Positions 3,201-51,849 of a stretch of 64,000 nt of DNA are shown in pieces; the first letter of the stretch is position 1; every line of letters starts with the position of its first letter. Origin of the DNA: a virus (lineage: Duplodnaviria > Caudoviricetes); IMG/VR virus record IMGVR_UViG_3300021256_000089, positions 1 to 64,000 of that record. The stretch is one strand, 5' to 3'. The notes below the pieces were generated by a model that saw only the letters and a program-made list of their open reading frames with translations, ran no database searches and had not been told where the DNA came from. The translations under genes were made by a program, and so were the position numbers.

Positions 3201-3441
3201 GGATGTGGACGATACCTATGGTATCAAGGCGAAGCTGTATTCAGTCAACCGAGGCATCACAGGTACCATGAAGATTCGCAAGGACGTCTTTGCGCAGCTC
3301 CCATTCAAGCCTGGAGATACAATCATGCTTCAGACATGGAGGAAGCAGCCGTGCTACGTGTATCAGAACGGCAAGCGCATTGCGATACCTGATCAAAAGG
3401 AAGTCTGGCTGTCATCCTACAGCATCCTGTCTTCCGCTTAA
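238..3441 (+). CDS. dnaE: DNA polymerase III alpha subunit (DnaE-type, with PHP domain); start codon uncertain
   Basis: PHP motifs ENYHCHT (upstream of the tracked ATG at 304), SEHG and DTHY; GRGSG; catalytic PDLDLN and KADFL; HPCAHLL; C-terminal OB-like region. Confidence 0.95.
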   Translation: MAFENYHCHTCGSNPLTQPDSTMFISDYAKAYQERGMRVLCVSEHGNRGNVWEQAEVAAKYSTDESKMIPLAAAEAYFVPDRKAEDRRNFHLILVAKDMDGFQQLNRILSEANMTGFYGKARVDFPLLQSLDYRHFICTTACVGGVFKDPEGEKYAQILHEIFRDNFYLEIQHHPQKIQIDTNRRIKEFYKKTGIPLMYGADTHYIRHEDAILRKELLLSSGIDNGYEDEFDLYLPTAEEAYRMLLAQKVFTPAQIEEAMENTLIFRDFEGVHFSTEKKIPNSRPDKTLEERNRLYMHEVCDGYIAKAGMPSKEEAEELHEEMDAVVDTGTADYFIAMKDIVDKGLSYGGVLTTTGRGSGVSFATNYALGFTSINRLKAPIKLYKERFISRERLASGSLPDLDLNMANVQAFEKAGKEILGEYGCLPMIAYGTNKVLSAFKMLARARDLDFELSNQISNQLKKYELDRKHAIENNQDDPDYDVDTDVILTDYVDRAYLPLIEESKQYCGIITTLVPHPCAHLLLDRDIREEIGVIRVKAKSGNKEPVYCAYIDGKTADAYGYLKADFLRVTVVQLIKQAFDQAGLPVMPVTELIAKTKDDQEVWDLYAHGFTHSLNQCEKEKTTERVMRYKPHNIVELAAFVAAVRPGFKSMLETFVSRSKFSYGIPALDQLLQTKAIPDSFLMFDEQILSILQAAGIPPADAYTCQKAIKKKKLEKVLSYKERFKTGFTKKLMDQGVKEHEAEATTEKVWTIINDAASYMFCAAHALSMACDSLYAAWLKVHYPYELYSVILKTFTEKGNKDKVASAIAEMRRYKGIQLTVGKFGQDNRDWHIDKEKGTISQSLSSVKFISQVAADDLYKMKDLHFDTFSDVLRYMQMETCLNARQIRVLIQLGYFDCFGGSDKLMQLFYVFSGDKINDHLFHGKNVITKTHKDKTVSQRMEVMHALEQNLPDLDAPIYERVRAENEYVGLCLSSDDTAPNLSYCVEDVDDTYGIKAKLYSVNRGITGTMKIRKDVFAQLPFKPGDTIMLQTWRKQPCYVYQNGKRIAIPDQKEVWLSSYSILSSA

Positions 3442-3490
3442 TCGGCAACACTGAAAATAAAAAAATAAAAAAAGAAAGCAGGCACGAAAA

Positions 3491-3811
3491 ATGAGTACGA
3501 GAATACACTCCGTTCCCGGATTCTTTGGTGAAACAATTCATTACGACGAAGCAGGCAACAAGGTTGGTGAAAGCTGGCCTGGTCTGTTCGGTGGATCACA
3601 AGTCCATTACGACGCTGGCGGTTCCAAGGTTGGAGAATCGTACGCTGGCTTGTTTGCCGATGCCATATACTACGATGAATGCGGCAGTAAGGCAGGCGAA
3701 AGCTATCGTGGATTCTTCGGGCAGGAGAACCATTACGACAATGACGGCGACTGGGTTGGCGACACCTGGTCAACGCCGCTTGGAACGGTTTCAGATTTCG
3801 ACCTTCCTTGA
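3491..3811 (+). CDS. Gly/Tyr-rich tandem-repeat protein (about 4 x 21-22 aa)
   Basis: Repeats of [HY]YDxxGxKxGES[WY]xG[LF]F[GA]. Confidence 0.8.
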   Translation: MSTRIHSVPGFFGETIHYDEAGNKVGESWPGLFGGSQVHYDAGGSKVGESYAGLFADAIYYDECGSKAGESYRGFFGQENHYDNDGDWVGDTWSTPLGTVSDFDLP

Positions 3812-3841
3812 TGCCCGGCTTCTAAAGCTGGGTGATTTCAT

Positions 3842-4267
3842 ATGTACCAATTACCCCTGAGATTTATACGAATTTCAGAGGATGTCAGCATCTGCGCGAC
3901 GCGAATTGTTGCCATGATGTCGACGGATACTTACCAAGCCCGCAACCTGATACGAGACGAGAAGCGAGCGGGCACACTGATTAACGGGGCAGGCAGAGCA
4001 GCGGTAAAGACGGCGATCGTACTTGACAACGGTACGATTGTGGCCTCTCCCCTCTCGATTCGTAGGCTGATGACGGCGATCGAGCGTTCCAACGCAAAAG
4101 ATCCCGGCAAAGTCAAGGCCGACAGCGTCAGGCTGAAGGTCTATACGGTTGGAGACGAGGAGCCTGATCCCGAACTCGACGAAGAAGTGCCGGAAGTTGG
4201 TGCTGAACTCGGAGCGCATCTGCCAGAAATCCCAGAAGAGGAGCTGATCGAAGATGATTTTACTTAA
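3842..4267 (+). CDS. RemA/DUF370-like DNA-binding regulator with acidic C-terminal tail
   Basis: FIRISEDVSICATRIVAMMS...ARNLIRDEKRAGTLINGAGRAAVKTAIVLDNGTIVASP aligns by eye with RemA (LINIGFGNIVSANRIIAIVS...[38 protein letters not shown]). Confidence 0.75.
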   Translation: MYQLPLRFIRISEDVSICATRIVAMMSTDTYQARNLIRDEKRAGTLINGAGRAAVKTAIVLDNGTIVASPLSIRRLMTAIERSNAKDPGKVKADSVRLKVYTVGDEEPDPELDEEVPEVGAELGAHLPEIPEEELIEDDFT

Positions 4268-8332: not shown

Positions 8333-8901
8333 TGCAAAAAAAGAAAACAATAGAGCTTCTGACACTCCCCTCTCGATTCTGGCTTGTATCGGCAGACCTG
8401 TCTCTCCGCAGACCTGGATTCTGCAGGATGCTTGTCACACAGCAAGAGAATGGACCTCCTCTGATTGAACAAATCCTCCTGCGCAGCGTTGACAACAAGA
8501 CGGCGACCAAAACGCACGGAGAACTGCTCGATGATATATTACGCGCCGTGTCTGAACTCTTTCCAGACACCGAAAAGACGGATATTCCTACGTTTTTCGT
8601 GCGCGAAAAAGCGATCAACAGCCGGGCTGCGATGTCCGAAATCGGCGTGTTCAAGGTTGTCGGTGTCACCGATTGGGTTCTGTGGCGTATCGGGCAAACC
8701 TGGCATGAAATCTATCCTGTATCTGTCAAAAAACTGGTGACTGGTTCCGGTAAATCTGATAAAGAAGCCGTCGCTCAGGCAGTACAAAAGCTGCTTGGCG
8801 GCGTCTCGTTCAATAATGATGACGAGTCCGATGCCGCAGCTGTGGCATTGGCTTTCCTGATTGAACAAAAAGTAATGCCGGAGGTGGTGCCCGATGATTG
8901 A
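8332..8901 (+). CDS. RuvC-like Holliday junction resolvase
   Basis: SADLS (first acidic site), VREK, PVSVKKLVTGSGKSDKEAV, DDESDAAAVA. Confidence 0.85.
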   Translation: MQKKKTIELLTLPSRFWLVSADLSLRRPGFCRMLVTQQENGPPLIEQILLRSVDNKTATKTHGELLDDILRAVSELFPDTEKTDIPTFFVREKAINSRAAMSEIGVFKVVGVTDWVLWRIGQTWHEIYPVSVKKLVTGSGKSDKEAVAQAVQKLLGGVSFNNDDESDAAAVALAFLIEQKVMPEVVPDD

Positions 8902-9739
8902 CCTTGCAAACGGATACAAAGGCTATCGATTGGTTCCTGCGGACAATCCAGCCGTGATCGCCATGTACGAGGATAAGACAAACAACCTGATCGGGGCGTC
9001 CGAAAACGAGTACGTGTTGATCACGAACCCTGAGGACGGACGGATTGTCGACAAAATCAAGTGGCAGGACGGCAGGTTCAAGCCGCTGTACCGCAAACCG
9101 CTTGAAAGCATGGCGACGAGCAAGATCAAAGCGAAAAATGTCGAGCAGGAGCTTGCGATCGACATGCTCATGGACGAGCAGACGACTGTCAAAACGATCA
9201 CTGGCACATGGGGCAGCGGCAAAACGCTGTTGTCCTGTGCCTATGCCTTTGCATCCCTGCAATCCGGGCGGTATGACAAGATCGTTTGGATCCGCAACAA
9301 TGTCGAGGTGAAGGATTCGAATCCGATTGGCTTCCTGAAGGGCGATTTCGGCAACAAGATGATGGTCTGGGCCATGCCGTTGGCCGATCACATGGGGGGC
9401 GTTGACGCGCTTGAAATGTACATTCAGCGAGGCCAGGTTGAGATCATGCATCTCGGTTTTCTTCGTGGCAGAGACATTCACAATAGCCTGATTCTCTGTT
9501 CCGAAGCCGAGCATCTGACACGGGAGCATGTTCAGCTGCTGCTGGCGCGCGTCGCCGAAGGATCGACTCTTATTCTGGAAGGTGACTGCAGGCAGATTGA
9601 TGCTAAAGCCTTTGAACGGGACAACGGTCTCGAGGCTGCCATCCAGAGGCTGCGCGGAAACCGTCTGTTCGGCTATGTACACCTGAATGAATCAGTCCGC
9701 AGTGACACGGCGAAGCTTGCTGACCTGCTCGGGGACTGA
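8894..9739 (+). CDS. phoH: PhoH-family ATPase
   Basis: Walker A GTWGSGKT, IGFLKGD, GFLRGRDI, LEGDCRQID. Confidence 0.92.
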   Translation: MIDLANGYKGYRLVPADNPAVIAMYEDKTNNLIGASENEYVLITNPEDGRIVDKIKWQDGRFKPLYRKPLESMATSKIKAKNVEQELAIDMLMDEQTTVKTITGTWGSGKTLLSCAYAFASLQSGRYDKIVWIRNNVEVKDSNPIGFLKGDFGNKMMVWAMPLADHMGGVDALEMYIQRGQVEIMHLGFLRGRDIHNSLILCSEAEHLTREHVQLLLARVAEGSTLILEGDCRQIDAKAFERDNGLEAAIQRLRGNRLFGYVHLNESVRSDTAKLADLLGD

Positions 9740-9752
9740 GAAAGGACAAACG

Positions 9753-10379
9753 ATGAGCTTATTTGAACTTCCTGTCGCAATTGGAGAAATTATGTCCGAT
9801 GGATCGGGTCCTCTGCCTGATCCTGATCTGGTCAATTTCTACAAGCTGGCAGAAAAACGAATCATTTATCTGGATTTTGATGTAGATATCGATGTCATGG
9901 CAATCCATCGGCAGATCATGCTCTGGAATATGGAAGACAGGGACATTGAGATTGACAAGCGTCAACCGATCAAGCTTGTGATCTATTCTCCCGGGGGATA
10001 CATGGGTCACATGTGGGCAATTGTCGATCTGATCAATGCTTCAAAGACTCCTGTCTGGACGATCAATATTGGCCAGGCGTCATCTGCGGCATTTTTGATC
10101 TTTGTATCCGGCAAGAAGCGTCTGATGACGAAGAACGCTGTCTGTGTCGTGCATGAAGGCGCTGCCCAAATGGATGGCGATGCCGTCAAGGTGATGGACG
10201 CCGCGACAACGTACAAGGAAGATTTGAAGCGGATGAAGCAGTACATCGTGGATCACACCGGGATTCCGATGCGCATGCTGACTTCAAAGAAAGCCAATGA
10301 CTGGACCATCAGCGCAGATAAATGTCTCGAGCTGAAAGCCTGCGACCAGCTGATTGGTTCGCTGGATGATGTTTTCTGA
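9753..10379 (+). CDS. clpP: ClpP-family serine peptidase
   Basis: RIIYL, IYSPGG, nucleophile ASSAAFLIF, VVHEG, DWTISA (putative Ser-His-Asp triad). Confidence 0.88.
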   Translation: MSLFELPVAIGEIMSDGSGPLPDPDLVNFYKLAEKRIIYLDFDVDIDVMAIHRQIMLWNMEDRDIEIDKRQPIKLVIYSPGGYMGHMWAIVDLINASKTPVWTINIGQASSAAFLIFVSGKKRLMTKNAVCVVHEGAAQMDGDAVKVMDAATTYKEDLKRMKQYIVDHTGIPMRMLTSKKANDWTISADKCLELKACDQLIGSLDDVF

Positions 10380-10410
10380 TTGCGGCTCGAACGCAAAGGA
10401 GATGGTTCCA

Positions 10411-10857
10411 TTGGCTGACGAACAGCTTTCGGTACAGATTATCTACCATGACGATGAGATCCCGCCGCTGCGTCCGATGTTCCGCAAGAGCGACTGGATC
10501 GATTTATACGCAGCCGAGGACGTTGAGCTGAAACAGGGCGAGTCTGCCCTAATTTCGCTCGGCGTTTCCATGCGGCTGCCCGATGGATACGAAGCGCACA
10601 TCGCGCCGCGTTCGTCTACTTTCAAAAACTTCGGGATCATTCAGACCAACTCAGTTGGCGTGGTCGATAATTCCTATTCCGGCGACCATGACATCTGGCG
10701 CTTTCCTGCGCTTGCGATGCGGGACACCGTCATTCATAAGGGTGACAGGATCTGTCAGTTCAGGCTGATGGAAAAGATGCCCGGTGTCACATTCATGAAG
10801 GTGGATCACCTGGAAGGTCCTGATCGCGGCGGTTTCGGATCGACAGGGATCAGGTAA
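10411..10857 (+). CDS. dut: Trimeric dUTPase
   Basis: DLYAAE, PRSS, GVVDNSYSG, RICQ, DRGGFGSTG; AAGGAG before TTG 10411. Confidence 0.95.
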   Translation: MADEQLSVQIIYHDDEIPPLRPMFRKSDWIDLYAAEDVELKQGESALISLGVSMRLPDGYEAHIAPRSSTFKNFGIIQTNSVGVVDNSYSGDHDIWRFPALAMRDTVIHKGDRICQFRLMEKMPGVTFMKVDHLEGPDRGGFGSTGIR

Positions 10858-11069: not shown

Positions 11070-12464
11070 ATGAGTGAGCACTGCGGCTACATTGTCCGCA
11101 TCGATACACTTCGCAAGCACTCGAACGCTGACAGGCTGCAGGTTGCCACGATCTTCGGCAATGATACGATTGTCAGTCTCGATGTGCACCCCGGAGATAT
11201 CGGGGTTTATTTCCCTTCCGATCTGCAGCTGTCGGAAGAATTTTGCAAGGTAAACGATCTTGTCCGCAGAAAGGACGAGAACGGCAAGGAATGCGGCGGG
11301 TATCTTGACCCCGTCAAACGCAACGTGCGGGCCATCAACCTGCGCGGTGAAAAGAGCGACGGCATTTACCTGCCGCTTTCCTGCCTGTCTGCGTTCGGAG
11401 ACGTTGACACGCTTGCTATCGGCAAAACAATCGACGTCTGGAACGGTCATGAGATCTGCTGCAAATATATTCCGCGCAGCAATCCGACAGCTGTGGCTAA
11501 AACAGCTCATCCTGTCAAGGCGAAGCGGAATATTGCGCCGACTTTCTACGAGCACGTGGATACGGAGCAGCTGAACTACAATCTTCTTGCTTTCCGGCAA
11601 GGAGACGAGATTGAGCTGACTCTGAAGATGCATGGCACTTCTCAGCGTACCGGGTATCTGCCTCTGATCAGAGAGAAAAAGCGTACTCTGCTTGACAGGC
11701 TTCTGCGCAGACCGGAGAAGACGTACACAGAATACGGATATATCACCGGCACACGCAGAACTGTGCTTGATCCTGACAGAAACACCAATACAGATGGCTT
11801 CTACAAGGACATGGATTTCCGCGATGCTATGGCCAAGAAATTCGAAGGCAAACTGCACAAGGGTGAAACTGTCTATTATGAGATTGTTGGTTTCCAGGGG
11901 CCGAACGGTGCTCCGATCATGGCCACGTGTCAGAATTCTAAAATAAAGGACAAGGAATTCGAACGCACGTACGGCAAGGAGACTGTCTTCAACTACGGCT
12001 GCGACCCGACAGGCGACTATGTGCCACGTCCGACAGAGAATCTCAGCAATCAAACAATCTTTGTTGCGCCGTGCTGTGATGTGTACGTGTACCGGATGAC
12101 GATGGTCAACGAGGACGGCGATGTCGTTGAGTATACGCCGGATTTTGCACGTTACCGATGCGAACAGATGGGCGTCAAACATGTCATGATGTTTGAACGT
12201 TTCTTTATCCCGGTTGATTGTGACGTTGATCCCGGTAATTACGTGAAGGAAAAGGCCGAGCAGTATTTTGACGGCCCTGACCCGATTGGCAGGACGCATG
12301 TGCGCGAAGGTGTCGTCGCCCGCATTGTCAATCGTCCTGTATTCACGGCTTACAAGACCAAAAACTGGTCGTTCAAGGTGCTTGAAAACATTGTCAAGGA
12401 TATGTCCGATGTGCCGGACATGGAAGAGGCTCAAGACTTGATCAATGAGGAGACACAGGAATGA
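11070..12464 (+). CDS. ATP-dependent RNA ligase (Rnl2/DRB0094-like) with N-terminal OB-type domain
   Basis: N-terminal KHSNADRLQ...RAINLRGEKSDG; adenylation motif TLKMHGT; YYEIVG, VYVYRM, REGVV, YKTK motifs. Confidence 0.88.
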   Translation: MSEHCGYIVRIDTLRKHSNADRLQVATIFGNDTIVSLDVHPGDIGVYFPSDLQLSEEFCKVNDLVRRKDENGKECGGYLDPVKRNVRAINLRGEKSDGIYLPLSCLSAFGDVDTLAIGKTIDVWNGHEICCKYIPRSNPTAVAKTAHPVKAKRNIAPTFYEHVDTEQLNYNLLAFRQGDEIELTLKMHGTSQRTGYLPLIREKKRTLLDRLLRRPEKTYTEYGYITGTRRTVLDPDRNTNTDGFYKDMDFRDAMAKKFEGKLHKGETVYYEIVGFQGPNGAPIMATCQNSKIKDKEFERTYGKETVFNYGCDPTGDYVPRPTENLSNQTIFVAPCCDVYVYRMTMVNEDGDVVEYTPDFARYRCEQMGVKHVMMFERFFIPVDCDVDPGNYVKEKAEQYFDGPDPIGRTHVREGVVARIVNRPVFTAYKTKNWSFKVLENIVKDMSDVPDMEEAQDLINEETQE

Positions 12465-12994
12465 AGATTACATCCAAAGAGGCAAACAAGTTCATCAAAA
12501 CCATGAACGAAAAACTAGAAGACCTGATTGAGCAGGACAAGCGTGATTCAGTGTATGTGGCGGCCATCGAGGAAGATCCGATGGACGTCCGTCCTGATTA
12601 TGATTTCTCGGAAAACGCCGACAAAGAGAAGACGATCATGAAACATCTCGCGATCGTGAAGCATGCGCTCAATCAGTTCAATCAGACGCACAAGATCAGT
12701 CCGGATGAAGAGTACACGATCGATCAGGTACTGGTTATGATGCCGATCCTCTCGCGTCAGATCGGGCTCTATCGTGAAATGATGAAGTTGCCAGAGAAGG
12801 CAAGAGCGAACGATCGATACCATTCGAACCCGCATATCGAATACAATTATACCAACTTCGATCGCGGTGAGCTCCTTGACTCTTATGATACGGCCAAGGA
12901 ACAGCTTGAAAAATGGCAGCTTCAGCTTGACAGGATCAATTCGACAGTTGAAGAGATCGATATTCCGGATGAAATCGTATTAGCTTATACTTAA
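12461..12994 (+). CDS. Conserved Firmicute-type coiled-coil protein (DIP1984/DUF6847-like from memory, unverified)
   Basis: MKITSKEANKFIK...EDPMDVRPDYDF...VKHALNQFN...TIDQVLVMMPIL...QLQLDRINST; ATGA overlap with the RNA ligase. Confidence 0.75.
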   Translation: MKITSKEANKFIKTMNEKLEDLIEQDKRDSVYVAAIEEDPMDVRPDYDFSENADKEKTIMKHLAIVKHALNQFNQTHKISPDEEYTIDQVLVMMPILSRQIGLYREMMKLPEKARANDRYHSNPHIEYNYTNFDRGELLDSYDTAKEQLEKWQLQLDRINSTVEEIDIPDEIVLAYT

Positions 12995-13004
12995 TTTCTT
13001 TCCG

Positions 13005-13185
13005 TCATGCATGTGTTTGTTTTAGAAGCTGATTGTTTAGCGTTCGTTGTTTGATGTTGTTCGCTTTGTTATCAGTTATCGCCCCTTTGTGTTTAATGTT
13101 CTGGGGTCAAACATGATTCTGAGTGCATGTATGTAAAAGCCTGCGCGTTGCGCACTCCGTCCCGAGGCACGGTTTCAGGAGCGGA
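13005..13185 (+). ncRNA. Putative structured RNA with 7-nt periodic GYTNNNN array
   Basis: Closing helices CATGCA/TGCATG and TGTTTG/CAAACA, hairpin GCCCC/GGGGT, heptads at 13028-13067, 3' multiloop CCTG/CAGG. Confidence 0.6.
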
Positions 13186-13189
13186 ACAA

Positions 13190-13260
13190 TGAGGTGTGGC
13201 CAAGCGGTAAGGCACGGGACTTTGACTCCTGAATCGAAGGTTCAACTCCTTCCACCTCAG
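13190..13260 (+). tRNA. tRNA-Gln(TTG)
   Basis: TGAGGTG/CACCTCA acceptor, CTTTGAC loop, TTCAACT T-loop; CCA not encoded. Confidence 0.95.
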
Positions 13261-13265
13261 CTTTG

Positions 13266-13657
13266 CGGGTAGCCAAGCATTAAAAGGCGATAAGAAAATA
13301 AGGCTCGTACGGGAGAACACCCGGAGGGGACAACTCCGTGTAGATAGGCCCAATAAATCCTGACAGCAGTCTGCTTGCAGATGATCTGTCAGGTCGGGAT
13401 GCATGCAGAGTAAGTCAGTGTAACTCTCCCAGAGATGCGTGTGATTGACGCCGTAAGCGCTTACGGCTACTGCACACCCCGCATGTAAAAAACCTGCGCA
13501 GCGGACCAGTGCTTGGACGCCATGGTACAACAGGCCAGCCACCTGATCGAGGCCGTGGTAGAAGATCTCCGGCAACGCTTGCGCTGTCTCCAAGGTTGAC
13601 GTTCCGTCCTCTTGAGAGAGGGAGTTGGCTGCCCGAGAGGTCGGTTTGGCGGAGACA
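13266..13657 (+). ncRNA. Putative large ornate ncRNA between tRNAs
   Basis: 11-bp closing helix 13266-13276/13625-13635, many internal stems, possible 7-bp pseudoknot 13585-13591/13651-13657; no ORF with an RBS. Confidence 0.7.
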
Positions 13658-13660
13658 CAT

Positions 13661-13729
13661 GATCCCGTAGCTCAATTGGCGAGAGACGCGACTACATGCG
13701 GAATGACGGTTCGATTCCGTCCGGGATCA
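13661..13729 (+). tRNA. tRNA-like element with shortened anticodon arm (pseudo-tRNA or mimic)
   Basis: GATCCCG/CGGGATC acceptor, GACGG-TTCGATT-CCGTC T arm; anticodon arm is only 4 bp plus the 6-nt loop ACTACA. Confidence 0.65.
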
Positions 13730-15000: not shown

Positions 15001-15438
15001 ATGCGGATAATTGATGCGGATAAACTAAATGAAATGATTCGTGCAGACAACTGTTCATTATGCAGAGGTGGAGGCCAATGTGGCTATTGCGAAACGCGTA
15101 CCGTACTAAATATGATCGTCAGTCTTCCTACAATTCAATTATGGGCTGGGTTTGGCAAAAATTCGCCAGAAGAAAAAGATAAATACTATGCTTGTCAAAG
15201 AGTTGAAAACGTTTATGAATCTTTTGCTGAAACATCGAAGCGTGAAATAGATTTTCTTGATTGGCTATCGCTTTCCGTTGTTTTAGGAGACGATTTTAAG
15301 AAGAACCCAGAATTCTATCGTGAACTTATTTGTAGGAAGTTAGTCGAACTTGGCAAACTTGAAAAGAAAAATGATTATTATATATTATCTGATCCTGAAA
15401 AATGGCTTAAAAAGTTTGATGTAAACATATACGAATAG
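15001..15438 (+). CDS. Phage hypothetical protein (MRIIDADKL; CxxC...CxxC)
   Basis: GGTGAAGTGGA RBS-like; AT-rich coding. Confidence 0.7.
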   Translation: MRIIDADKLNEMIRADNCSLCRGGGQCGYCETRTVLNMIVSLPTIQLWAGFGKNSPEEKDKYYACQRVENVYESFAETSKREIDFLDWLSLSVVLGDDFKKNPEFYRELICRKLVELGKLEKKNDYYILSDPEKWLKKFDVNIYE

Positions 15439-15455
15439 TTTAAGTAACCGAAATT

Positions 15456-15528
15456 GCTATCATAGCTCAATGGTGAGAGCAGTGGCCTTATAAGCCAAAG
15501 GTTCCCGGTTCGAATCCGGGTGATAGTA
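15456..15528 (+). tRNA. tRNA-Ile(TAT)
   Basis: GCTATCA/TGATAGT acceptor, anticodon loop CTTATAA, TTCGAAT. Confidence 0.9.
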
Positions 15529-15529
15529 T

Positions 15530-15790: not shown

Positions 15791-15894
15791 GACGCCGAGA
15801 GGATGACTGGGCGACGGCACTAAGAGGAGTCATGACCTCATCGCTTTCCCGAGATTCTGACAGCATCGACTCGTTAACATGAAGCTGTGTGCAC

Positions 15895-15967: not shown

Positions 15968-15970
15968 CAC

Positions 15971-16190
15971 ATGCAGGGTCGCGCCCTGCAAGGCTCCCGA
16001 TCCTTACCTTTGTTGACTTCGGAAGGACGAAGCGGCAGCAAGATCGGTATGGCCCTGAAGAGCGGGATGGAAGGAAGTAACACCGTGAATGTCCTTACCC
16101 AAATGCGCATTGTCCTTACTCGATGCGTATTGGAAGATGTGGAAGTGGTGTGCCAAACCCGAGTACGGTGATGAACGTGTAGGGGTCATA
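15971..16190 (+). ncRNA. Putative structured RNA with three TCCTTAC copies
   Basis: Stems TGCAGGG/CCCTGCA, CCGATC/GATCGG, CACCGTG/TACGGTG, AATGCGCAT/ATGCGTATT; fills the gap between tRNA-Lys and tRNA-Thr. Confidence 0.5.
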
Positions 16191-16191
16191 T

Positions 16192-44681: not shown

Positions 44682-47600
44682 TTATGCAATGCGGAATACA
44701 GTATACCAATTTTTACGACTTGCAGAGTTTATAATATCTATTCCATATTGACCAGTTGTTTGCAACATAGATATTGATACAGTGATCTCACTTCCAGTTC
44801 CTGATATGTTGTGCGCGTATATTGATTCAGAATTAATGTTAACTACCCACAAGGAGCACGAGTTAGCAGTAGCCTTTACCATGGTGATAACCAGATAACG
44901 TCCATATGGCACCGGTATATGCGCTGGCGCATATACATCTTTATCGTCTTTTTTTGTGCTTAATGTGCCGGAAGCATATCCACCGTATAACATACCTTCA
45001 TAAATGGATGCTTTTCCGGCAGATAGGTTGGTAGTCATCAGATTTGGTACTGCGGCATAAGCACCAACAGCTTGATCTGCAATAGGCGTTACACCGCCTA
45101 AGTGCAAACTAAGCATATCGGTTAATGTTCCGGACATATTGGCCATTTTGAAGATCATAGCAGATCCGGATCTGCTTGCCGATGCTCCTTGAATGGACAG
45201 ATTCAACCTGGCCGCAACCCACGGACTGCCAGTAGATATATTCTGATATATGACAAAAGGCGAAAAATCACCCGTGTCAGTAGCGCCCATGTACAATTGA
45301 ACAGGTTCTTTAGCATTTGCCCGCAAATTAACTCTGCCTTGCGTAGTCAGCGTCTTTGGATTTTCTGAAGATAACAATCCATTGCCAATGTACCAGTTGC
45401 CAATCAGTCCAGACACAAATGAAACATTGCCATCAGCATCGACGGTAAAATTACCGCTTGTTATTTCCAATTGCCCGGTCGTCGACAGTTTGATTTTATT
45501 CGGTGTCAAAAGAATGCCGCTGGCATTGCCCAAACTATCCCAAGTTAAAGCAGAAATCTTCGTCGGTATCGCTTCTATTTTAGCATACGATGTAAGCTTT
45601 GTCGTTAAGCCGTCTGGTGTTACAAATGTATTGTCGGCCATTGCTGTAGCTGTTAGTTTACCCTTGTCATTCAACGAAAAATTAGCTTTTGTATTGCCGA
45701 TATATAATGCATTCGCTCGGATGGTCCCTGTTACCTCAGCGTCTGTTGCAGTAAGCTTACCGGTATTTGTTACCTTGAACGTATCTTGTCCGGAATTATT
45801 TTTGATCGTAATAGAACCTTTATTCATGGTAATAGTTCCATCACTTGCCGCGATAAAACTACCGTTACCAAGATTAATAGATCCTTTTGTAATAGCTAGA
45901 CCAGCTTGACTCAACAAAGCATCCGGAGTGGTACTCGTATCCGTTCCGTAAAAGCCTATCCCATCAGCACCAAACTTCGCATATACTCCAGTGTATTTCC
46001 ACGTATCTGTTGCCTGCTCATATGTTCCTTGTTGTACAGTCAGATAATTTGATCCAAAGTTAAAATGACTTCGTAAAGTTGTGTTTGTGTCTCCTTTAAA
46101 ATTTGTATAGTCTTGTTTTAAAGAACCGAAAGACACGTATGTTTCCTGTAAATCATCTGTCAGTTTCTCAAGGGATATCGTGCCAGCTTCAATTAGCACG
46201 GCCCGAATGTGTCCGGCCGTAATCAGATCTGCTGTGAAGCCTTTGCCTGTGCCGAACGTGCGCCAGCGCCAGTCGCCTTCCTCATCCTTGCTGTCCGCAA
46301 TCGCGAAGCCTGCACCTGTCAGCCGCATCGCCGAGGATCCATCCGTAGCTTCAAACATCTGAGCACCCTTATCATCTGTGTACCAGGAGCTCGATACGCT
46401 CGTAATTAGATTGCGTTCTGTGCTGATCGTATCCTCGAGCAGCTGCGCCATGATCTTTCCGGTTCTGCTGAACTGCTTCGCCCGCTCATACATCGTTTCC
46501 CTGCCTCGCGATTGATTCGCGACATCGGCAATGTAGGAAATCACATCGGAGAAGCTGTGCTGATTCATCAGCGTCAGGTTTGTGTTGATTGTTATCGACG
46601 TCTTCCACGGCTGATCATAACACTTTTTTAGCTGATCGATATAGGCCCAGCAGTTGACAGCGATTTCAGGATCAATGAGATGGATTGCATCCTGAATTCG
46701 GATGTCAGGCCACAATACTTTGGCTGTTTCTGGCGACGCGCCGTAATCTTCGTTGTCTTCGTTCGCGCCATACAGATCGAGATACGAAACAGAATACGTT
46801 GTTTCTGGCTTTGAGATGTACTCGATGTTCTCTACAGCGTCATCATACAGTTTCTGTTCGTCTTCGTCTACGTAGTCGTTTTTCTGCCAGTAGCCCTCGC
46901 GGAAGATGTCGCCAAGTTTCAATGCGAGATTCGTTTCCATCTCTTTCATTTGATCCTGCATCCGCGTGAGATATGGAAGATCAGAAAGGTATACGAGTTC
47001 AGCATAGTCCGCGAATTGATCCATCATCGGGACAAGACCTTTATATACCCCTTCGCCCGTCATCTTAGGAAGGATCGTGTATGTAATATTCTGCCCCGTT
47101 TTAGACGAAAGAGTAATCGTATTTTTTGTTGTCACAGGACGAATCGTAATCTTGTCGCGTAGAGATTTCAGACACGTAATGCGGATATACGATGATCCCG
47201 GTGTAAACGATCCATCGTTCCCTATTGCAACTCTTGTACCACTCGTCGAATCAACATTGCTGTACTTGTAGATTCGAATTCGTGTTTCGTCAGACGATGA
47301 ACTGACATTGAACGCGCTTGATGTAATTAGATATTTTTGAGTGTCTGCAACTGTCAACATCGTGCTTGTCAGATATTGGACGGCCGGTTCTTCAGCGCCA
47401 GTATCGTCATTTAATCCGCCTTTTTTGACAGTTATCTTATTGTCATGTGGATCAAAAATGATCACAGGCGGCTGAGCCATAGAACCAACAAGAATTTTTC
47501 CTTGAACGATTCGCTGTGGATTCAATTCTTCGTAAATCTTAATATTCTTTTGTTTGAGATCGACCTGCTTCAGGCGCAACGAAGAACAGTTTGCCGGGAT

Positions 47601-50585
47601 CGAAAGATCCTTGTTTTTTGAATTCGCATCAATGTCTTCCTTTTTGAGAAATTTACCCTTTGAGTTATAGTAGAAGACTGTTACAGCCGGTATGTTTGTT
47701 TCTGTACCGAGATAACTGTATTTATACTTTTTGTGATCACGATGCCTGGGTGGCAACTTAATGTTTGAAGTTCGCTTATAAGCAAGATCATTGTCAGCAA
47801 GTGTACCATTGCTTGTCAGCTTTTGATCCATATAGTCGCCGACATTCATTAGGTTGGAAGGATGATAGAAGACATCATCCTGATCACGAGTCAATACAGA
47901 GTACGAGTCTACGTCAACCCATTTGGCGTCTTCTCCGGATTGATATGTTTGCTCGCGTATATAACCCGCGTATGGTCCACCAGTATCATACGCCAAACGA
48001 TTACCAGCTTCGACAGGTTCTTTCAGTGTAAATGTCCAGTACCTGCCATAATCTGTTTCGAACGCGTAATTGCCGGCATCGAGAGTTGAAGATGGCGCAT
48101 ATGTGTATGTCTGATACTGTCCTTTTAATGTTTGTTCCAACGTGTAACATGCGGAGATTACACGGCCGAAATACTGTATAATAGCCGATTGAGATGTCTC
48201 ATCCTCGATCTTTACAAAAGCACCTCCGCCACGTTTACGATATAAGACAGGTGCCTTCGTGTCAAGACCAAGCTCATTGTATGCTGGCGTGTACCAATAA
48301 GCGTCTGCTTCTGGTACAGGTCTCGTGTTGTTTCCTGGTTGGATATATACTGGATACCAATTGGTATCTTTCTCGGTACCCCATTTCGCTGTATCTCCCC
48401 AGCAAAAATAGAGTTTGCTTGGTCTTCCATCTGCATTGTATTTCCACCACCAACCCCAGAATCCAGGACCGATGACGTTCTTTAGGGACGGTGGATACAT
48501 GCTGCAATATAACCGGTGATCAATTGTCGAGCCGTCGTCTTCTCCTGTTTTGGTGCCTTTGCACGCTGCTTCAAGTTCAGATTCCAGTGCGCCGATGTAA
48601 CCGTTGACGCTGTTTGCTTCGAATAAATAATACTTGTTGTTTTCATTGTTGACCGCGTGTGCATTTCTGGAATATACATCTTCCCATTTTAACCACAGCG
48701 TAATAGTTGTTTGTTGCGTCGCGTCATTATGACCGATATCTTTCAGATAACTCTTGTCCCAAGAGCTGTCGTCGCGCAGAATATACACAACAGAAGCGGC
48801 AGGCTCCTGCGGCGTACCATCAGGTTTCAGGCTCGGTGCCACATGAATCAGATCATGATACCAGTCAAGATCTGATTTCTTGTTCTCGTACTCAACAGTC
48901 TCACCCATCACCTGCGCACTTGTTGTTTTCTTTTCTTTGTACCAGGCGTATTTGCGCACAATGCTATCGGGGATTACCTGAAAAGTATTCACTTGATCGA
49001 ACGTGGGATCATCAAAGGTATATGCGACATAGTCTCCGGATTTATGATAGACACCATCCGGCAGCCTGCAGTATTTCAGAGTTGAACCAATCAGCCCGCT
49101 GAGCTCTGTAAGATCTGTGTTGTATGTTTCGCTTGCCTGAGCAATACGCCTAAGCAGCTCGGGAGCCCCACGCTGAAACTGTGCGATTGTTTGCAGCATA
49201 TCGTCAGTCAGCAAATCAACGCTTGAATAGTAATCAAAGTCCATTAGATAAGAGAACTCGTTGCGCGCTTCTTTGATGTTTGATTTGTGCTCGTTGTCGC
49301 CTGTACCATATACACCGAGATCGACCGCATGATCGGTCTTTGCTTCGCGGTATACGGGATAAGCAAGATAATTGATCTCGTCCCACACATAGGATCTGGA
49401 AGCCGGGTCAAGTGTAGACCACACGAGATAATTATCTTGAGGCTGCGAAGATGGAGCCTCAGGATTCTGAATGATGTATGTATTGCCCTCGTAATCGCCG
49501 GTCATTAAACCAAGATCTTTAACTTCAGCAGCCGTATTCTTGGCAGATGTAGCATATGGCCGCACAAACTGGAAGTAATAAGTCGTTGCAATCCCATCAT
49601 CACCTTTGACCGTGAACTTGCATTCTGTCCAGTTCGGGAACACGCTGCATGTGGTTGCGTTAGATCCTTTATCTGTCAGCCAGTATTCTTTATGGATGCA
49701 CTCGTCAATGCCGCAGTATCCAGTAGCCGTGTCGCCCCACGAACCATACGCGTACAGCTTTGTCACAATGTTTTCTGTGTTCATTGTACGGGTCACGTTG
49801 CTGACGTTCTGTCCATAATGCAGTTCAATAACTTTGCTGCCCTGCCGGTTCTCTTCCTTACCGGCATGGCCATCAGGCAGAAAGATCGATGGCAGCTCAC
49901 CATCCGTCGATACGGAGAACGGGTTCATCGGGATGATGTCTACAGTTCGCGTATCGCCGTGAAACACAGGCTTTGCGTCAAACAAATCACACATCTGCGT
50001 AATCAGTTTAAAAGCGCCGGTTTTGGCCGACGCTCTGAGTGTGCGCATCTTCTCTTTCTTGCGCGTCTTCGTAACACCGTTTTCAACGTATGTTTCATAT
50101 TGATCTTTTTCAACAAAGCGATACACGTCGCCAGGTGTCCAGGTGGTACCATTCAGGATTTCTGTTAGTAAATCGTATGCGGTGCCGACATTGTTGCCAT
50201 CAGCATCCGTAAACTCAAGACCCATGTTTTTTGTTTTTAGCAGCTGACTGATATGTCCGGCTATCACAGACACATTCTTGCTTCGATTGACGTGCGTTAC
50301 CTTTGGTTCTGAAATAAGATACCAGTCTACACCGTCATCGTCAAGCAGCCGAATCATATAATCGGCCTTCATGTAATCGAGCCGGAAGTTCGGCTGCTGC
50401 CCGTCTTCTGTCTCACAGGTTGTAGGCAAGTCAAAGGTCAGTACCTTCCAGCCGTTGCGCTCCGTCGTGACAAGCACGTTGCTTGCCTGCCCAGAAGATT
50501 CGACCGCGTTATCATACAGCGTGCACAGCTTGTGCTTTGCGTAATCGAATACATCCAGGACTAAATTCCTTTTATACCTTAACAT
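44682..50585 (-). CDS. Tal / tail spike (prophage-tail endopeptidase-type N-terminus, long variable insert, fibre-like C-terminus)
   Basis: Follows Dit; YGQNVSNVTRT...TKLYAYG; AMRLTGAG.AIA.SKD..G.W.WRTFGTG.GF.AD.I.AG. Confidence 0.85.
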   Translation of the reverse strand: MLRYKRNLVLDVFDYAKHKLCTLYDNAVESSGQASNVLVTTERNGWKVLTFDLPTTCETEDGQQPNFRLDYMKADYMIRLLDDDGVDWYLISEPKVTHVNRSKNVSVIAGHISQLLKTKNMGLEFTDADGNNVGTAYDLLTEILNGTTWTPGDVYRFVEKDQYETYVENGVTKTRKKEKMRTLRASAKTGAFKLITQMCDLFDAKPVFHGDTRTVDIIPMNPFSVSTDGELPSIFLPDGHAGKEENRQGSKVIELHYGQNVSNVTRTMNTENIVTKLYAYGSWGDTATGYCGIDECIHKEYWLTDKGSNATTCSVFPNWTECKFTVKGDDGIATTYYFQFVRPYATSAKNTAAEVKDLGLMTGDYEGNTYIIQNPEAPSSQPQDNYLVWSTLDPASRSYVWDEINYLAYPVYREAKTDHAVDLGVYGTGDNEHKSNIKEARNEFSYLMDFDYYSSVDLLTDDMLQTIAQFQRGAPELLRRIAQASETYNTDLTELSGLIGSTLKYCRLPDGVYHKSGDYVAYTFDDPTFDQVNTFQVIPDSIVRKYAWYKEKKTTSAQVMGETVEYENKKSDLDWYHDLIHVAPSLKPDGTPQEPAASVVYILRDDSSWDKSYLKDIGHNDATQQTTITLWLKWEDVYSRNAHAVNNENNKYYLFEANSVNGYIGALESELEAACKGTKTGEDDGSTIDHRLYCSMYPPSLKNVIGPGFWGWWWKYNADGRPSKLYFCWGDTAKWGTEKDTNWYPVYIQPGNNTRPVPEADAYWYTPAYNELGLDTKAPVLYRKRGGGAFVKIEDETSQSAIIQYFGRVISACYTLEQTLKGQYQTYTYAPSSTLDAGNYAFETDYGRYWTFTLKEPVEAGNRLAYDTGGPYAGYIREQTYQSGEDAKWVDVDSYSVLTRDQDDVFYHPSNLMNVGDYMDQKLTSNGTLADNDLAYKRTSNIKLPPRHRDHKKYKYSYLGTETNIPAVTVFYYNSKGKFLKKEDIDANSKNKDLSIPANCSSLRLKQVDLKQKNIKIYEELNPQRIVQGKILVGSMAQPPVIIFDPHDNKITVKKGGLNDDTGAEEPAVQYLTSTMLTVADTQKYLITSSAFNVSSSSDETRIRIYKYSNVDSTSGTRVAIGNDGSFTPGSSYIRITCLKSLRDKITIRPVTTKNTITLSSKTGQNITYTILPKMTGEGVYKGLVPMMDQFADYAELVYLSDLPYLTRMQDQMKEMETNLALKLGDIFREGYWQKNDYVDEDEQKLYDDAVENIEYISKPETTYSVSYLDLYGANEDNEDYGASPETAKVLWPDIRIQDAIHLIDPEIAVNCWAYIDQLKKCYDQPWKTSITINTNLTLMNQHSFSDVISYIADVANQSRGRETMYERAKQFSRTGKIMAQLLEDTISTERNLITSVSSSWYTDDKGAQMFEATDGSSAMRLTGAGFAIADSKDEEGDWRWRTFGTGKGFTADLITAGHIRAVLIEAGTISLEKLTDDLQETYVSFGSLKQDYTNFKGDTNTTLRSHFNFGSNYLTVQQGTYEQATDTWKYTGVYAKFGADGIGFYGTDTSTTPDALLSQAGLAITKGSINLGNGSFIAASDGTITMNKGSITIKNNSGQDTFKVTNTGKLTATDAEVTGTIRANALYIGNTKANFSLNDKGKLTATAMADNTFVTPDGLTTKLTSYAKIEAIPTKISALTWDSLGNASGILLTPNKIKLSTTGQLEITSGNFTVDADGNVSFVSGLIGNWYIGNGLLSSENPKTLTTQGRVNLRANAKEPVQLYMGATDTGDFSPFVIYQNISTGSPWVAARLNLSIQGASASRSGSAMIFKMANMSGTLTDMLSLHLGGVTPIADQAVGAYAAVPNLMTTNLSAGKASIYEGMLYGGYASGTLSTKKDDKDVYAPAHIPVPYGRYLVITMVKATANSCSLWVVNINSESIYAHNISGTGSEITVSISMLQTTGQYGIDIINSASRKNWYTVFRIA

Positions 50586-50598
50586 GCCCATCCTCCTT

Positions 50599-51849
50599 TT
50601 ACGGGAACGTAGGCTTGAAGACAAACCGCATCCTGTGCAGATTCATGTCTCCGTCGTTTCCTTTTTGAATACTGATTTCATTTGCCTTGATGATCATCCA
50701 ATTATCTAATTTGATATCGCCGGATATCGCAGGCGAATGCTCACTTGGTTCACACCAGATCGAATAACCACTGACGCTTGCAATTTTCCACATATGCCCG
50801 GTGTCCTCATCATACACCCAGTATCCTGCCGGTTTGTAAGGCAGATGTAAATCATATTGATCAGAAATCGTAAATGAATTATGTCCGGGTGTTTCGTTAC
50901 CTTGCAGCTGCACATCACCGTTGCTTCTGAATAATGGCACGCCAGCCGGCTCCAGATAGATAAAGCCGTAATCGTGATACACGTAATCGAGCGTAACATT
51001 TGAATCACTGCCATGACGTGACACACGTCCGTTTAGAGCATCGCATTGAATGTACTGGCTCTTATCACTAACGCCGCCAATGAAGCGGCAGACTTCAGAA
51101 TTCGTGTGATTTGTAATCGTCAGTCCTTTGTTAAAAGTGCCACCGACTTCGACACATACGGCAGCACGTTCCGTCCCTGGATTGATGACCGGGAACTTGA
51201 TCAAATTGCTTGTCATACTATCCGCACCGCGAAGGAAATCATACACCACCTGATTGCCGGATGAGATTCGCCTGGCGTTTTGCGCCAGGTCATCGTTTGC
51301 ATCTACAACATAACCCATCGCAGAATTGGCGCGCATATCAGCAATCACACGGTTCTTTTCTGCAATATCTTCTCGTTGTGTTTCGCTGAGCGGTTGATTT
51401 TCCTCGTCGATCACATCTTCGTGATCTGTATAATACTGATCGCTTCTTGCAAAAGGATAGTAAGCACGCATCTGGATCACAACAATACCATTCTCACGGT
51501 TTGTCAGCCCGCTTGCGTTAACGCTTACAACGGTCGCCGTGTACCACAGCCATGGGCGCTTAGCGAATACAAGCCGTCCAGTCTTCCCACGATGGAACAG
51601 CCAGTCAATCTTTGACATGACGCCGTCAAGTACCGGAGATTCCTCAAAGATGCACCGTAGTGTAAAGTCTTTCGGTTGCATCGTATTGCCGTAATAGTAG
51701 CCGCCGTCATGGGCGTCGAAAGCCTGCTCATGCAGCTTATATGCCGCAGGCTTGTATACGTAAATGTTGGATATTTCTGGCGCATAGGTCAGGCCGATGT
51801 CGGCGATGTCAACACCGTCAAAACTGAAGCCGCCTTTGATTACTGCCAT
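50599..51849 (-). CDS. Distal tail protein (Dit), with probable insertion
   Basis: GFSFDG..DIG, KDFTL, GRLVF...WYTATV, YYPFA; between TMP and Tal. Confidence 0.85.
   Translation of the reverse strand: MAVIKGGFSFDGVDIADIGLTYAPEISNIYVYKPAAYKLHEQAFDAHDGGYYYGNTMQPKDFTLRCIFEESPVLDGVMSKIDWLFHRGKTGRLVFAKRPWLWYTATVVSVNASGLTNRENGIVVIQMRAYYPFARSDQYYTDHEDVIDEENQPLSETQREDIAEKNRVIADMRANSAMGYVVDANDDLAQNARRISSGNQVVYDFLRGADSMTSNLIKFPVINPGTERAAVCVEVGGTFNKGLTITNHTNSEVCRFIGGVSDKSQYIQCDALNGRVSRHGSDSNVTLDYVYHDYGFIYLEPAGVPLFRSNGDVQLQGNETPGHNSFTISDQYDLHLPYKPAGYWVYDEDTGHMWKIASVSGYSIWCEPSEHSPAISGDIKLDNWMIIKANEISIQKGNDGDMNLHRMRFVFKPTFP

Follow-up and report, generated by a model that had tools for sequence, protein, structure and literature searches.

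In a 64,000-nt stretch of the 81.5-kb IMG/VR phage record IMGVR_UViG_3300021256_000089 (positions 1–64,000, referred to below as the window), the gene of a 177-aa protein is followed directly on its 3' side, on the same strand, by an element of ~190 nt that appears to act as a folded RNA. As far as sequence comparison can tell, the same element trails the same gene family in hundreds of phage and Clostridia sequences from gut and rumen, and gene and RNA very probably work together. We read the region 12461–13185, with moderate confidence, as a protein-linked structured RNA that would form a ribonucleoprotein with the predicted dimer of the neighboring protein. Structured RNAs linked to a gene for a domain of unknown function (DUF), and protein–RNA modules on mobile elements, are a known kind; what is new is the RNA family itself, the joining of a double-pseudoknot core to a loop that bears repeats, and the position immediately 3' of the gene.

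The protein family is large, with 480 cluster representatives at E ≤ 1e-3 in an exhaustive HMMER search, mostly 160–180 aa long and 30–40% identical, and it turned up at 411 places in metagenomes and in the genomes of 261 species, most of them Clostridia. For comparison, loci were gathered from viruses (10), metagenomes (80) and bacterial genomes (80). The nearest relative with genomic context (P0002, 40% identity) belongs to a phage with NrdD/NrdG and dUTPase; its gene is followed by a 223-nt spacer that has several short blocks in common with the window, and then by a DUF3310 gene, not a tRNA. In homologues at 35%–40% identity the gene is again followed at once by this ~200-nt element. A covariance model built on the element's junction and P2 hairpin (R1) gives one match per locus, on the gene's strand and ending 160–250 nt past the stop, in 79 of 93 sources; seven of the 14 sources without a match are truncated contigs. 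R1 also matches 69 of 77 bacterial-genome loci, and it has no further match in ~0.9 Mb of flanks. The copy in the window scores 30.6 bits and is the only match in the 81.5-kb record. When 151 genomes were scanned with R1 blind to the protein, both matches had the gene directly upstream. At loci of canonical DUF6847 genes in Bacillota, R1 has no match (0/22). An exact 15-mer of the P2 loop, tried as a probe of viral contigs, occurs at 88 places, of which only two (contigs already known) have the protein; the rest are at chance level and this probe was dropped.

No partner other than this gene is conserved: the flanking proteins, upstream as well as downstream, belong to many small clusters unrelated to one another, among them nucleases, an AbiEii-like ATPase, an NADAR protein, a serpin and housekeeping genes. 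In Dysosmobacter segnis (locus L205) the module lies between a PvuRts1I-like/SRA nuclease and an AbiEii-like AAA ATPase (1501–2382 and 3298–4182), and on the metagenomic contig L114 a DarT1-associated NADAR gene (94–855) adjoins it. An earlier note on this DNA had attached weight to two neighbors in the window, an RNA ligase gene coupled to the protein gene and a tRNA array. Both prove to be local. The stop of the ligase gene and the ATG of the 177-aa open reading frame (ORF) do overlap (ATGA), and the relatives of the ligase (59%–64% identity, L002–L008) have neither the 177-aa gene nor the tract of GYT triplets, so this link was dropped. A tRNA gene within 400 nt downstream is found in only 6 of 46 loci. 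At locus L126, four tRNA genes (1–314) lie directly upstream of the homologous protein gene, so that tRNA clusters recur near the module on either side and are not a constant feature of it. What the same note had proposed of the pair itself, a structured element genetically coupled to the protein, agrees with the recurrence of the element downstream of homologues; there the conserved element and covarying stems that it looked for are present, and the strict 7-nt periodicity is not what is conserved.

From the leader to the end of P2 the element has a median length of 201 nt (interquartile range 195–214). In nearly all of the loci gathered, its blocks come in one order: UUUCCG, a variable arm and an A-rich turn; then the GUUAY pentamers, preceded and followed by a GUUYANNGU box; then a strand complementary to the variable arm; and finally AAAACYUU and a hairpin with the 14-nt loop GARGYWCGGUUWYA. 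In the window, gene and element are laid out as follows, PK1 and PK2 being the two pseudoknots.

12461–12994, plus strand: gene of the 177-aa protein (four-helix; divergent DUF6847/DIP1984 branch; predicted symmetric homodimer)
12995–13189: spacer of 195 nt
12999–13004, plus strand: 5' leader UUUCCG, with CCG at 13002–13004 as the 5' strand of PK2
13005–13019, plus strand: 5' arm of P1, with partners at 13108–13114 and 13123–13133 in the single-sequence fold
13028–13080, plus strand: U/G-rich repeat zone with phased GYU, box 1, degenerate GUUGU units and two GUUAU
13081–13107, plus strand: local hairpin GCCCC/GGGGU, with box 2 in its loop
13108–13134, plus strand: 3' arm of P1, with an internal bulge
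13135–13142, plus strand: junction AAAAGCCU (consensus AAAACYUU), with 13139–13142 as the 5' strand of PK1
13143–13153, plus strand: optional small hairpin GCGC/GCGC between the junction and P2
13156–13185, plus strand: P2 hairpin, stem 13156–13163 with 13178–13185, loop 13164–13177

The 14-nt loop of P2 (GAGGCACGGUUUCA) pairs with the junction (PK1) and, at 13170–13172, with the 5' CCG (PK2), so that both ends would be locked into a compact double-pseudoknot core. From it, P1 would hold out a U/G-rich, mostly unpaired centre in which two GUUYANNGU boxes flank two to three GUUAY units. Box 1 is found at 13035–13043 (GUUUAGCGU) and box 2, which is conserved in the family, at 13091–13099 (GUUUAAUGU); canonical GUUAU units occupy 13068–13072 and 13075–13079, and there are two degenerate GUUGU units. 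The repeat stretch is 45% U and 13% C and cannot pair much with itself. The optional hairpin, whose sequences are unrelated to one another, is limited to a minority of homologues (L018, L158, L209, L238 and L246). At the other end of the element, the CCG starts 7–8 nt past the stop codon in 66 of 135 distinct loci and at most 10 nt past it in 84 of 135.

Structural support comes from the homologues only, as the minimum-free-energy fold of the spacer is no better than that of shuffled sequences (z = -1.37); single-sequence folds are not significant on either strand. In P2 (8 pairs), 86.6% of cells are paired, compared with 60.9% in shuffled and 34%–55% in slid controls, and 139 cells have changed on both sides, compared with 46 in shuffles. 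RNAalifold recovered only P2 from a full-length MAFFT alignment because the arms of P1 are out of register there. These arms have unrelated sequences in different lineages, and P1 was tested by duplex energies: native arms average -17.7 kcal/mol and arms swapped between sequences -8.4 kcal/mol (42 distinct homologues, p = 2e-18). PK1, between the junction A-C-Y-U and loop positions 2–5 (A-R-G-Y; in the window GCCU at 13139–13142 and AGGC at 13165–13168), has 0 mismatches in 264 cells from 66 sequences and 18 changes on both sides, with its variable pairs divided as AU 59, GC 5 and GU 2, and as UA 51, CG 13 and UG 2. For PK2, leader and loop read CCG:CGG in 80, CCA:UGG in three and CCC:GGG in four of 98 sequences (permutation p < 2e-4). 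In P2 and PK1 together, G.U combinations outnumber A.C combinations 72 to 12, which indicates that the gene's strand is the folding strand. These compensatory changes argue that P1, P2, PK1 and PK2 are selected as a folded single strand.

Parts of this structure had been drawn beforehand from the window copy. The closing stems CATGCA/TGCATG and TGTTTG/CAAACA are indeed present, and P1 covaries in homologues. The GCCCC/GGGGT hairpin is likewise there in the window; in the family the helix around box 2 is weak (-4.4 versus -3.2 kcal/mol, p = 0.006), and comparison among homologues indicates that the hairpin is lineage-specific. A helix between CCTG at 13140 and CAGG at 13176, proposed in the same place, has to be given up, since covariation pairs 13139–13142 with 13165–13168 instead.

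The 177-aa protein had been likened to the DUF6847/DIP1984 coiled-coil family, and it is indeed a distant relative by profile and by fold, below the curated cut-offs. It matches Pfam DUF6847 (PF20935) at E = 0.009, with 16.4 bits against a curated cut-off of 27, and NCBIfam DIP1984 (NF038048) at E = 5e-4, with 20.3 bits against 70; PF20935 also picks up 36 of the 71 relatives at E ≤ 0.01, the best at 4.7e-8. The low scores taken together with these matches put the protein on a distant branch of the superfamily rather than among its members under the curated rules. AlphaFold2, run on an alignment of 71 relatives, predicts a four-helix bundle with two short strands (predicted local distance difference test score, pLDDT, 97.3). 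The only solved structure to stand out is 3KDQ from Corynebacterium diphtheriae, a DUF6847/DIP1984 member with the same fold as the model. Foldseek finds it at E 5.6e-4 with probability 1.0 and a template-modeling (TM) score of 0.55–0.62, and VIA-align at Z 11.7 with a root-mean-square deviation of 5.1 over 151 residues, the next rows having Z ≤ 8.5 over ~60 residues.

Modeling also supports a symmetric homodimer, with a score of 0.80 where the best of three controls reaches 0.07; the mark used for this score was reached by 20 of 30 proteins whose solved structure is a pair of the same chain and by one of 23 whose solved structure is a single chain, counts that are only rough because the alignment was one made for this analysis. 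Between runs the contacts agree at 100%, with a partner pLDDT of at least 91, and conserved K67, H68, T86 and D88 sit in the predicted interface. The model may remember a 3KDQ-like complex from its training, and the result favors pairing without showing it. No function for the protein emerges from PADLOC, PHROGs, a search of PDB sequences or the ESM Atlas, and we found no paper on the function of DUF6847 or DIP1984. No close relatives of the protein were found in viral contigs, and a word-index search for it returned only a 97% copy on a 671-bp contig.

The feature that first drew attention to this region was a run of GYT triplets at a strict 7-nt spacing, and every string cited for it lies where it had been placed. 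The triplets start at 13028, 13035, 13042, 13049, 13056 and 13063; after a 5-nt step they resume at 13068 and 13075, and two more, at 13091 and 13098, fall back into the first phase. On both strands of the 64-kb window, this is the sole period-7 run of at least four, and no other run of at least five exists at any period from 4 to 12. Dinucleotide-preserving shuffles, whether of the tract alone or of the entire spacer, never reach a run of six (0 of 5,000). A motif-free test of column information gives z = 5.4 for period 7 (0 of 2,000 shuffles) and |z| < 1.3 for the other periods from 3 to 12, which puts the phasing in the window far beyond chance. Tandem Repeats Finder reports nothing for the tract, indicating that only positions 1–3 of each heptad are kept and that the array is no decayed heptamer satellite.

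As a conserved feature, the strict array does not survive comparison. The period-7 z has a median of 0.65 over 112 homologues, compared with 4.6 for the window copy, and the best period is 13 or 7 in 67 of the 112. What the family keeps instead is two to three GUUAY pentamers and two GUUYANNGU boxes. In family alignments the heptads of the window span box 1 and both pairs of units, the degenerate GUUGU and the canonical GUUAU, and the GTTAT columns are almost invariant. Successive GUUAY units are 7 nt apart in 52 cases and 12–13 nt apart in 86, seldom at any other distance, and these spacings keep no constant DNA helical phase. Judged against the homologues, the phasing of the window is an extreme, regular version of a looser family rule, and 7 nt appears to be the minimal spacing of the motifs and no separate feature.

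If gene and element do form a ribonucleoprotein, the RNA would be made as the 3' part of the protein gene's transcript. Its 3' end would lie at P2, set in some genomes by a terminator with a T-run, which is seen behind P2 in 11 of 55 loci, and here by RNase P acting at the abutting tRNA (a tRNA starts within ~11 nt of P2 in four loci, the window, L022, L024 and L180). Its 5' end would be tucked into the P2 loop. The U/G-rich loop would serve as a landing platform on which the protein dimer recognizes GUU-containing motifs. The module itself is self-contained and passes between phages and chromosomal islands. In half of the loci the leader sits 7–8 nt past the stop and would be covered by a terminating ribosome, a position that suggests a coupling of translation to folding.

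Several points weigh against a ribonucleoprotein. The transcription, ends and accumulation of the RNA are inferred, and so, from gene linkage alone, is its binding by the protein. The family is acidic, with a median isoelectric point (pI) of 5.2 (4.8 for the window protein, with a net charge of -13), and has only six conserved K/R positions, which is atypical for an RNA binder; its sole structural relative, 3KDQ, is an uncharacterized protein. On the RNA side, typical elements hold two to three GUUAY units, and the family as a whole varies in their number, from one to seven, and in their spacing; boxes 1 and 2 co-vary weakly (7.20 versus 7.01 identities, p = 0.02). Divergent or damaged copies make up ~8% of the loci with enough sequence (L014, L115, L120 and L144), and the window copy is the lowest-scoring full R1 match.

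The acidity of the protein also fits the best-placed of the alternatives, which we nevertheless think unlikely, that the element is a 3' untranslated region (UTR) device acting in cis on its own mRNA, blocking decay, terminating transcription or coupled to termination, without binding the encoded protein. In a variant of it, the 5' CCG held in the loop of the 3' hairpin could stall a 5'-to-3' exonuclease, RNase J for example, or sense ribosomes terminating at the stop 7–8 nt upstream; the share of loci in which CCG begins within 10 nt of the stop, a distance that would fall within the footprint of a terminating ribosome, is in its favor, as are the T-run behind P2 in a fifth of the loci and the observation that the upstream gene is the only constant cis partner while the downstream genes vary. 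Against it stand 200 nt of structure with invariant loops, two boxes and pentamers, which exceed what a stabilizer or terminator needs, and conserved single-stranded motifs that point to recognition by a factor. The T-run, moreover, is missing from most copies, including that of the window: there P2 is directly followed by AACAA and then by the tRNA, which is not how an intrinsic terminator ends, and no terminator-like site was found in 12995–13189.

We are more doubtful that the RNA acts in trans on a host factor, as a decoy or sponge for an RNA-binding regulator or a defense nuclease or in the manner of an antitoxin, with the protein as its helper or as the toxin that it neutralizes; the pair would then be an anti-defense module or a toxin–antitoxin module akin to type III. 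A self-contained module at variable places in phages and chromosomal islands would suit such a role, and so would neighbors such as the PvuRts1I-like nuclease, the AbiEii-like ATPase and the DarT1-associated NADAR protein. In the window the module sits between an RNA ligase and a tRNA array; read by eye, its repeated UGUUAU-like units resemble a GUU anticodon loop, and conserved K, H, T, D, R and Y residues of the protein could form a catalytic or ligand site. Set against this, the PADLOC defense models match the protein with nothing beyond coiled-coil noise, the folds of ToxN, CptN and TenpN are not among its top structural matches, gene order and repeat length are unlike those of type III systems, and the ligase and tRNA contexts are not conserved. 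A bolder form of the ribonucleoprotein reading, which we consider speculative and rather improbable, would have a phage or mobile-element particle in which a 5'-end-protecting double pseudoknot and pentamers resembling a GUU anticodon are loaded with the dimer and take part in conflict with the host, as a decoy or inhibitor of defenses that target tRNA or other RNA, or as a new type of toxin–antitoxin system.

A double-pseudoknot core with invariant loop nucleotides, a 5' boundary fixed beside the stop codon and, in some loci, a tRNA abutting the element might also bring to mind a self-cleaving ribozyme or another catalytic or ligand-sensing RNA that processes the transcript, just past the stop codon or ahead of the downstream tRNA, with the U/G-rich domain as a peripheral part. 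We rate this as very unlikely: 13 copies have no match to an Rfam 15 ribozyme or riboswitch at E ≤ 1, and both the strict linkage to one protein family and the conserved repeats would be left unexplained. Least credible of all is an element that works as DNA (origin iterons, a site for partition, an operator or a recombination site) or a mere T-rich spacer or promoter before the tRNAs with an accidental periodicity, for which one can cite the insignificant single-sequence fold, the absence of the strict period from most homologues and the existence of heptad iterons bound by small dimeric proteins (omega of pSM19035), and against which stand compensatory changes in free-sequence helices and a pair of pseudoknots, selected as a folded single strand, the G.U excess that marks one strand, spacings of 7 and 12–13 nt that hold no helical phase, an element that trails its gene with or without nearby tRNAs, and 12995–13189 in which no sigma-70-like promoter was found.

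Returning to the ribonucleoprotein, close parallels are proteins that read short motifs repeated in unpaired RNA. HutP reads NAG triplets separated by 4 nt, which amounts to a 7-nt period, at a site just downstream of hutP, and the GYU triplets of the window have period 7 just downstream of their gene. The likeness in period extends to the window copy only, and HutP is an alpha/beta hexamer whereas the protein here is an acidic four-helix predicted dimer. The protein has no HutP match in Pfam or NCBIfam and no HutP fold, the triplets are GYU, and the spacer has no terminator-like site, so this is not HutP antitermination. TRAP forms a ring of 11–12 beta-sandwich subunits that bind (G/U)AG triplets 2–3 nt apart, whereas our protein is all-helical and the motifs are GUUAY and GUUYANNGU at spacings of 7 or 12–13 nt. 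The earlier proposal that each subunit of an oligomer or filament takes one repeat unit, after the manner of TRAP or a nucleocapsid, is not supported as it stood: the protein is acidic, and a dimer is predicted for it rather than a ring or filament. In contrast to both systems, no terminator/antiterminator alternative is evident here and the downstream genes vary.

Type III toxin–antitoxin systems (ToxIN, CptIN, TenpIN) are similar in pairing one protein with one repetitive RNA on phages and mobile islands. Their RNA lies upstream and consists of 34–45-nt tandem repeats cut by the toxin, whereas here the RNA follows its gene as one 200-nt fold with 5-nt repeats and no tandem repeat; the protein has no Pfam or PADLOC match to such toxins, and none was seen among its top structural matches. 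The orphan motifs that Rfam names after a DUF (for example DUF2693 RNA) are likewise elements defined by covariation, tied to one uncharacterized protein family and often found in phages and gut bacteria; the present element differs from them in its position 3' of the gene and in its double-pseudoknot core with a repeat-bearing loop. In the exonuclease-resistant RNAs (xrRNAs) of flaviviruses, which lie in the 3' UTR, the 5' nucleotides are tied by a pseudoknot to a downstream loop and Xrn1 is stalled; the likeness would be an analogy of topology only, and the enzyme to be stalled here would be a bacterial one, such as RNase J.

That no catalogued RNA family covers the element is supported by the 13 copies searched against Rfam 15: nothing matches in 12995–13189 at gathering thresholds or at E ≤ 1, and in 12 other loci the elements have no match at E ≤ 1, the only matches being to tRNAs. 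We found no paper on the element, and its loop and box sequences were found in no relevant paper. The first 200 of the 408 files of one structured-RNA catalogue (PMC8040213) contain no match; the element may be listed, unnamed, in the bulk catalogues PMC10690425 and PMC8040213.

Multi-helix, pseudoknotted RNAs are rare, and nearly all that have been studied are riboswitches, ribozymes or scaffolds of ribonucleoproteins. Gut and rumen Clostridia and their phages carry this one in abundance. Its single obligate protein partner has a solved relative in 3KDQ, and the RNA could therefore open a first functional lead for the DUF6847/DIP1984 superfamily. An RNA of ~200 nt and a 170-aa dimer are small enough for direct biochemistry and structure work, and the existence of cultured carriers (Dysosmobacter segnis BX15, L205; Ruminococcus albus 8, L239) makes the question testable at once. 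Should a role in phage–host conflict be true, the module would be an RNA-based addition in a group of bacteria about whose systems of this kind little is known.

The genes around the module in the window are as follows; beyond tRNA-Gln come small ORFs and six further tRNAs.

8894–9739: PhoH
9687–10379: ClpP
10354–10857: dUTPase
11070–12464: RNA ligase (phrog_968)
13190–13261, plus strand: tRNA-Gln(UUG), which begins 4 nt past P2

Neither ARAGORN nor the Rfam tRNA model calls a tRNA or transfer-messenger RNA inside 12995–13189; the box GUUCAAU looks T-loop-like by eye only. In another locus (L015, 3830–3990), five tandem units of ~31 nt stand between the element and a tRNA-Arg. In the window, tRNA-Gln is followed by a G+C-rich spacer of 399 nt without ORFs (in 13262–13729; fold z = -1.81). 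The region is closed by a tRNA-like gene at 13661–13729 that scores 38.7 bits in Rfam and is not called by ARAGORN; its acceptor and T arms look normal, and its anticodon stem, read by eye, has ~3 pairs below an 8-nt loop. A 20-nt stretch of the element (the end of P1 and the AAAA-CCUGCGC junction, 13124–13146) recurs 358 nt downstream at 13482–13500. A second copy of the 3' domain at 13487–13562 was considered and rejected (R1 6.1 bits, E 1.1), and the recurrence may be a decayed copy of that domain or chance.

Further long spacers in the tRNA array, at 15791–15894 (Ala–Lys) and 15969–16191 (Lys–Thr), have no Rfam match at E ≤ 1. A sub-threshold match to DUF2693 RNA (RF02956) at 15346–15529, with 29.1 bits against a gathering threshold of 81.3, runs across tRNA-Ile and the end of an ORF; the tRNA probably accounts for it. 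On the minus strand, two giant ORFs of 1,980 and 3,984 aa occupy 44682–50624 and 51975–63929.

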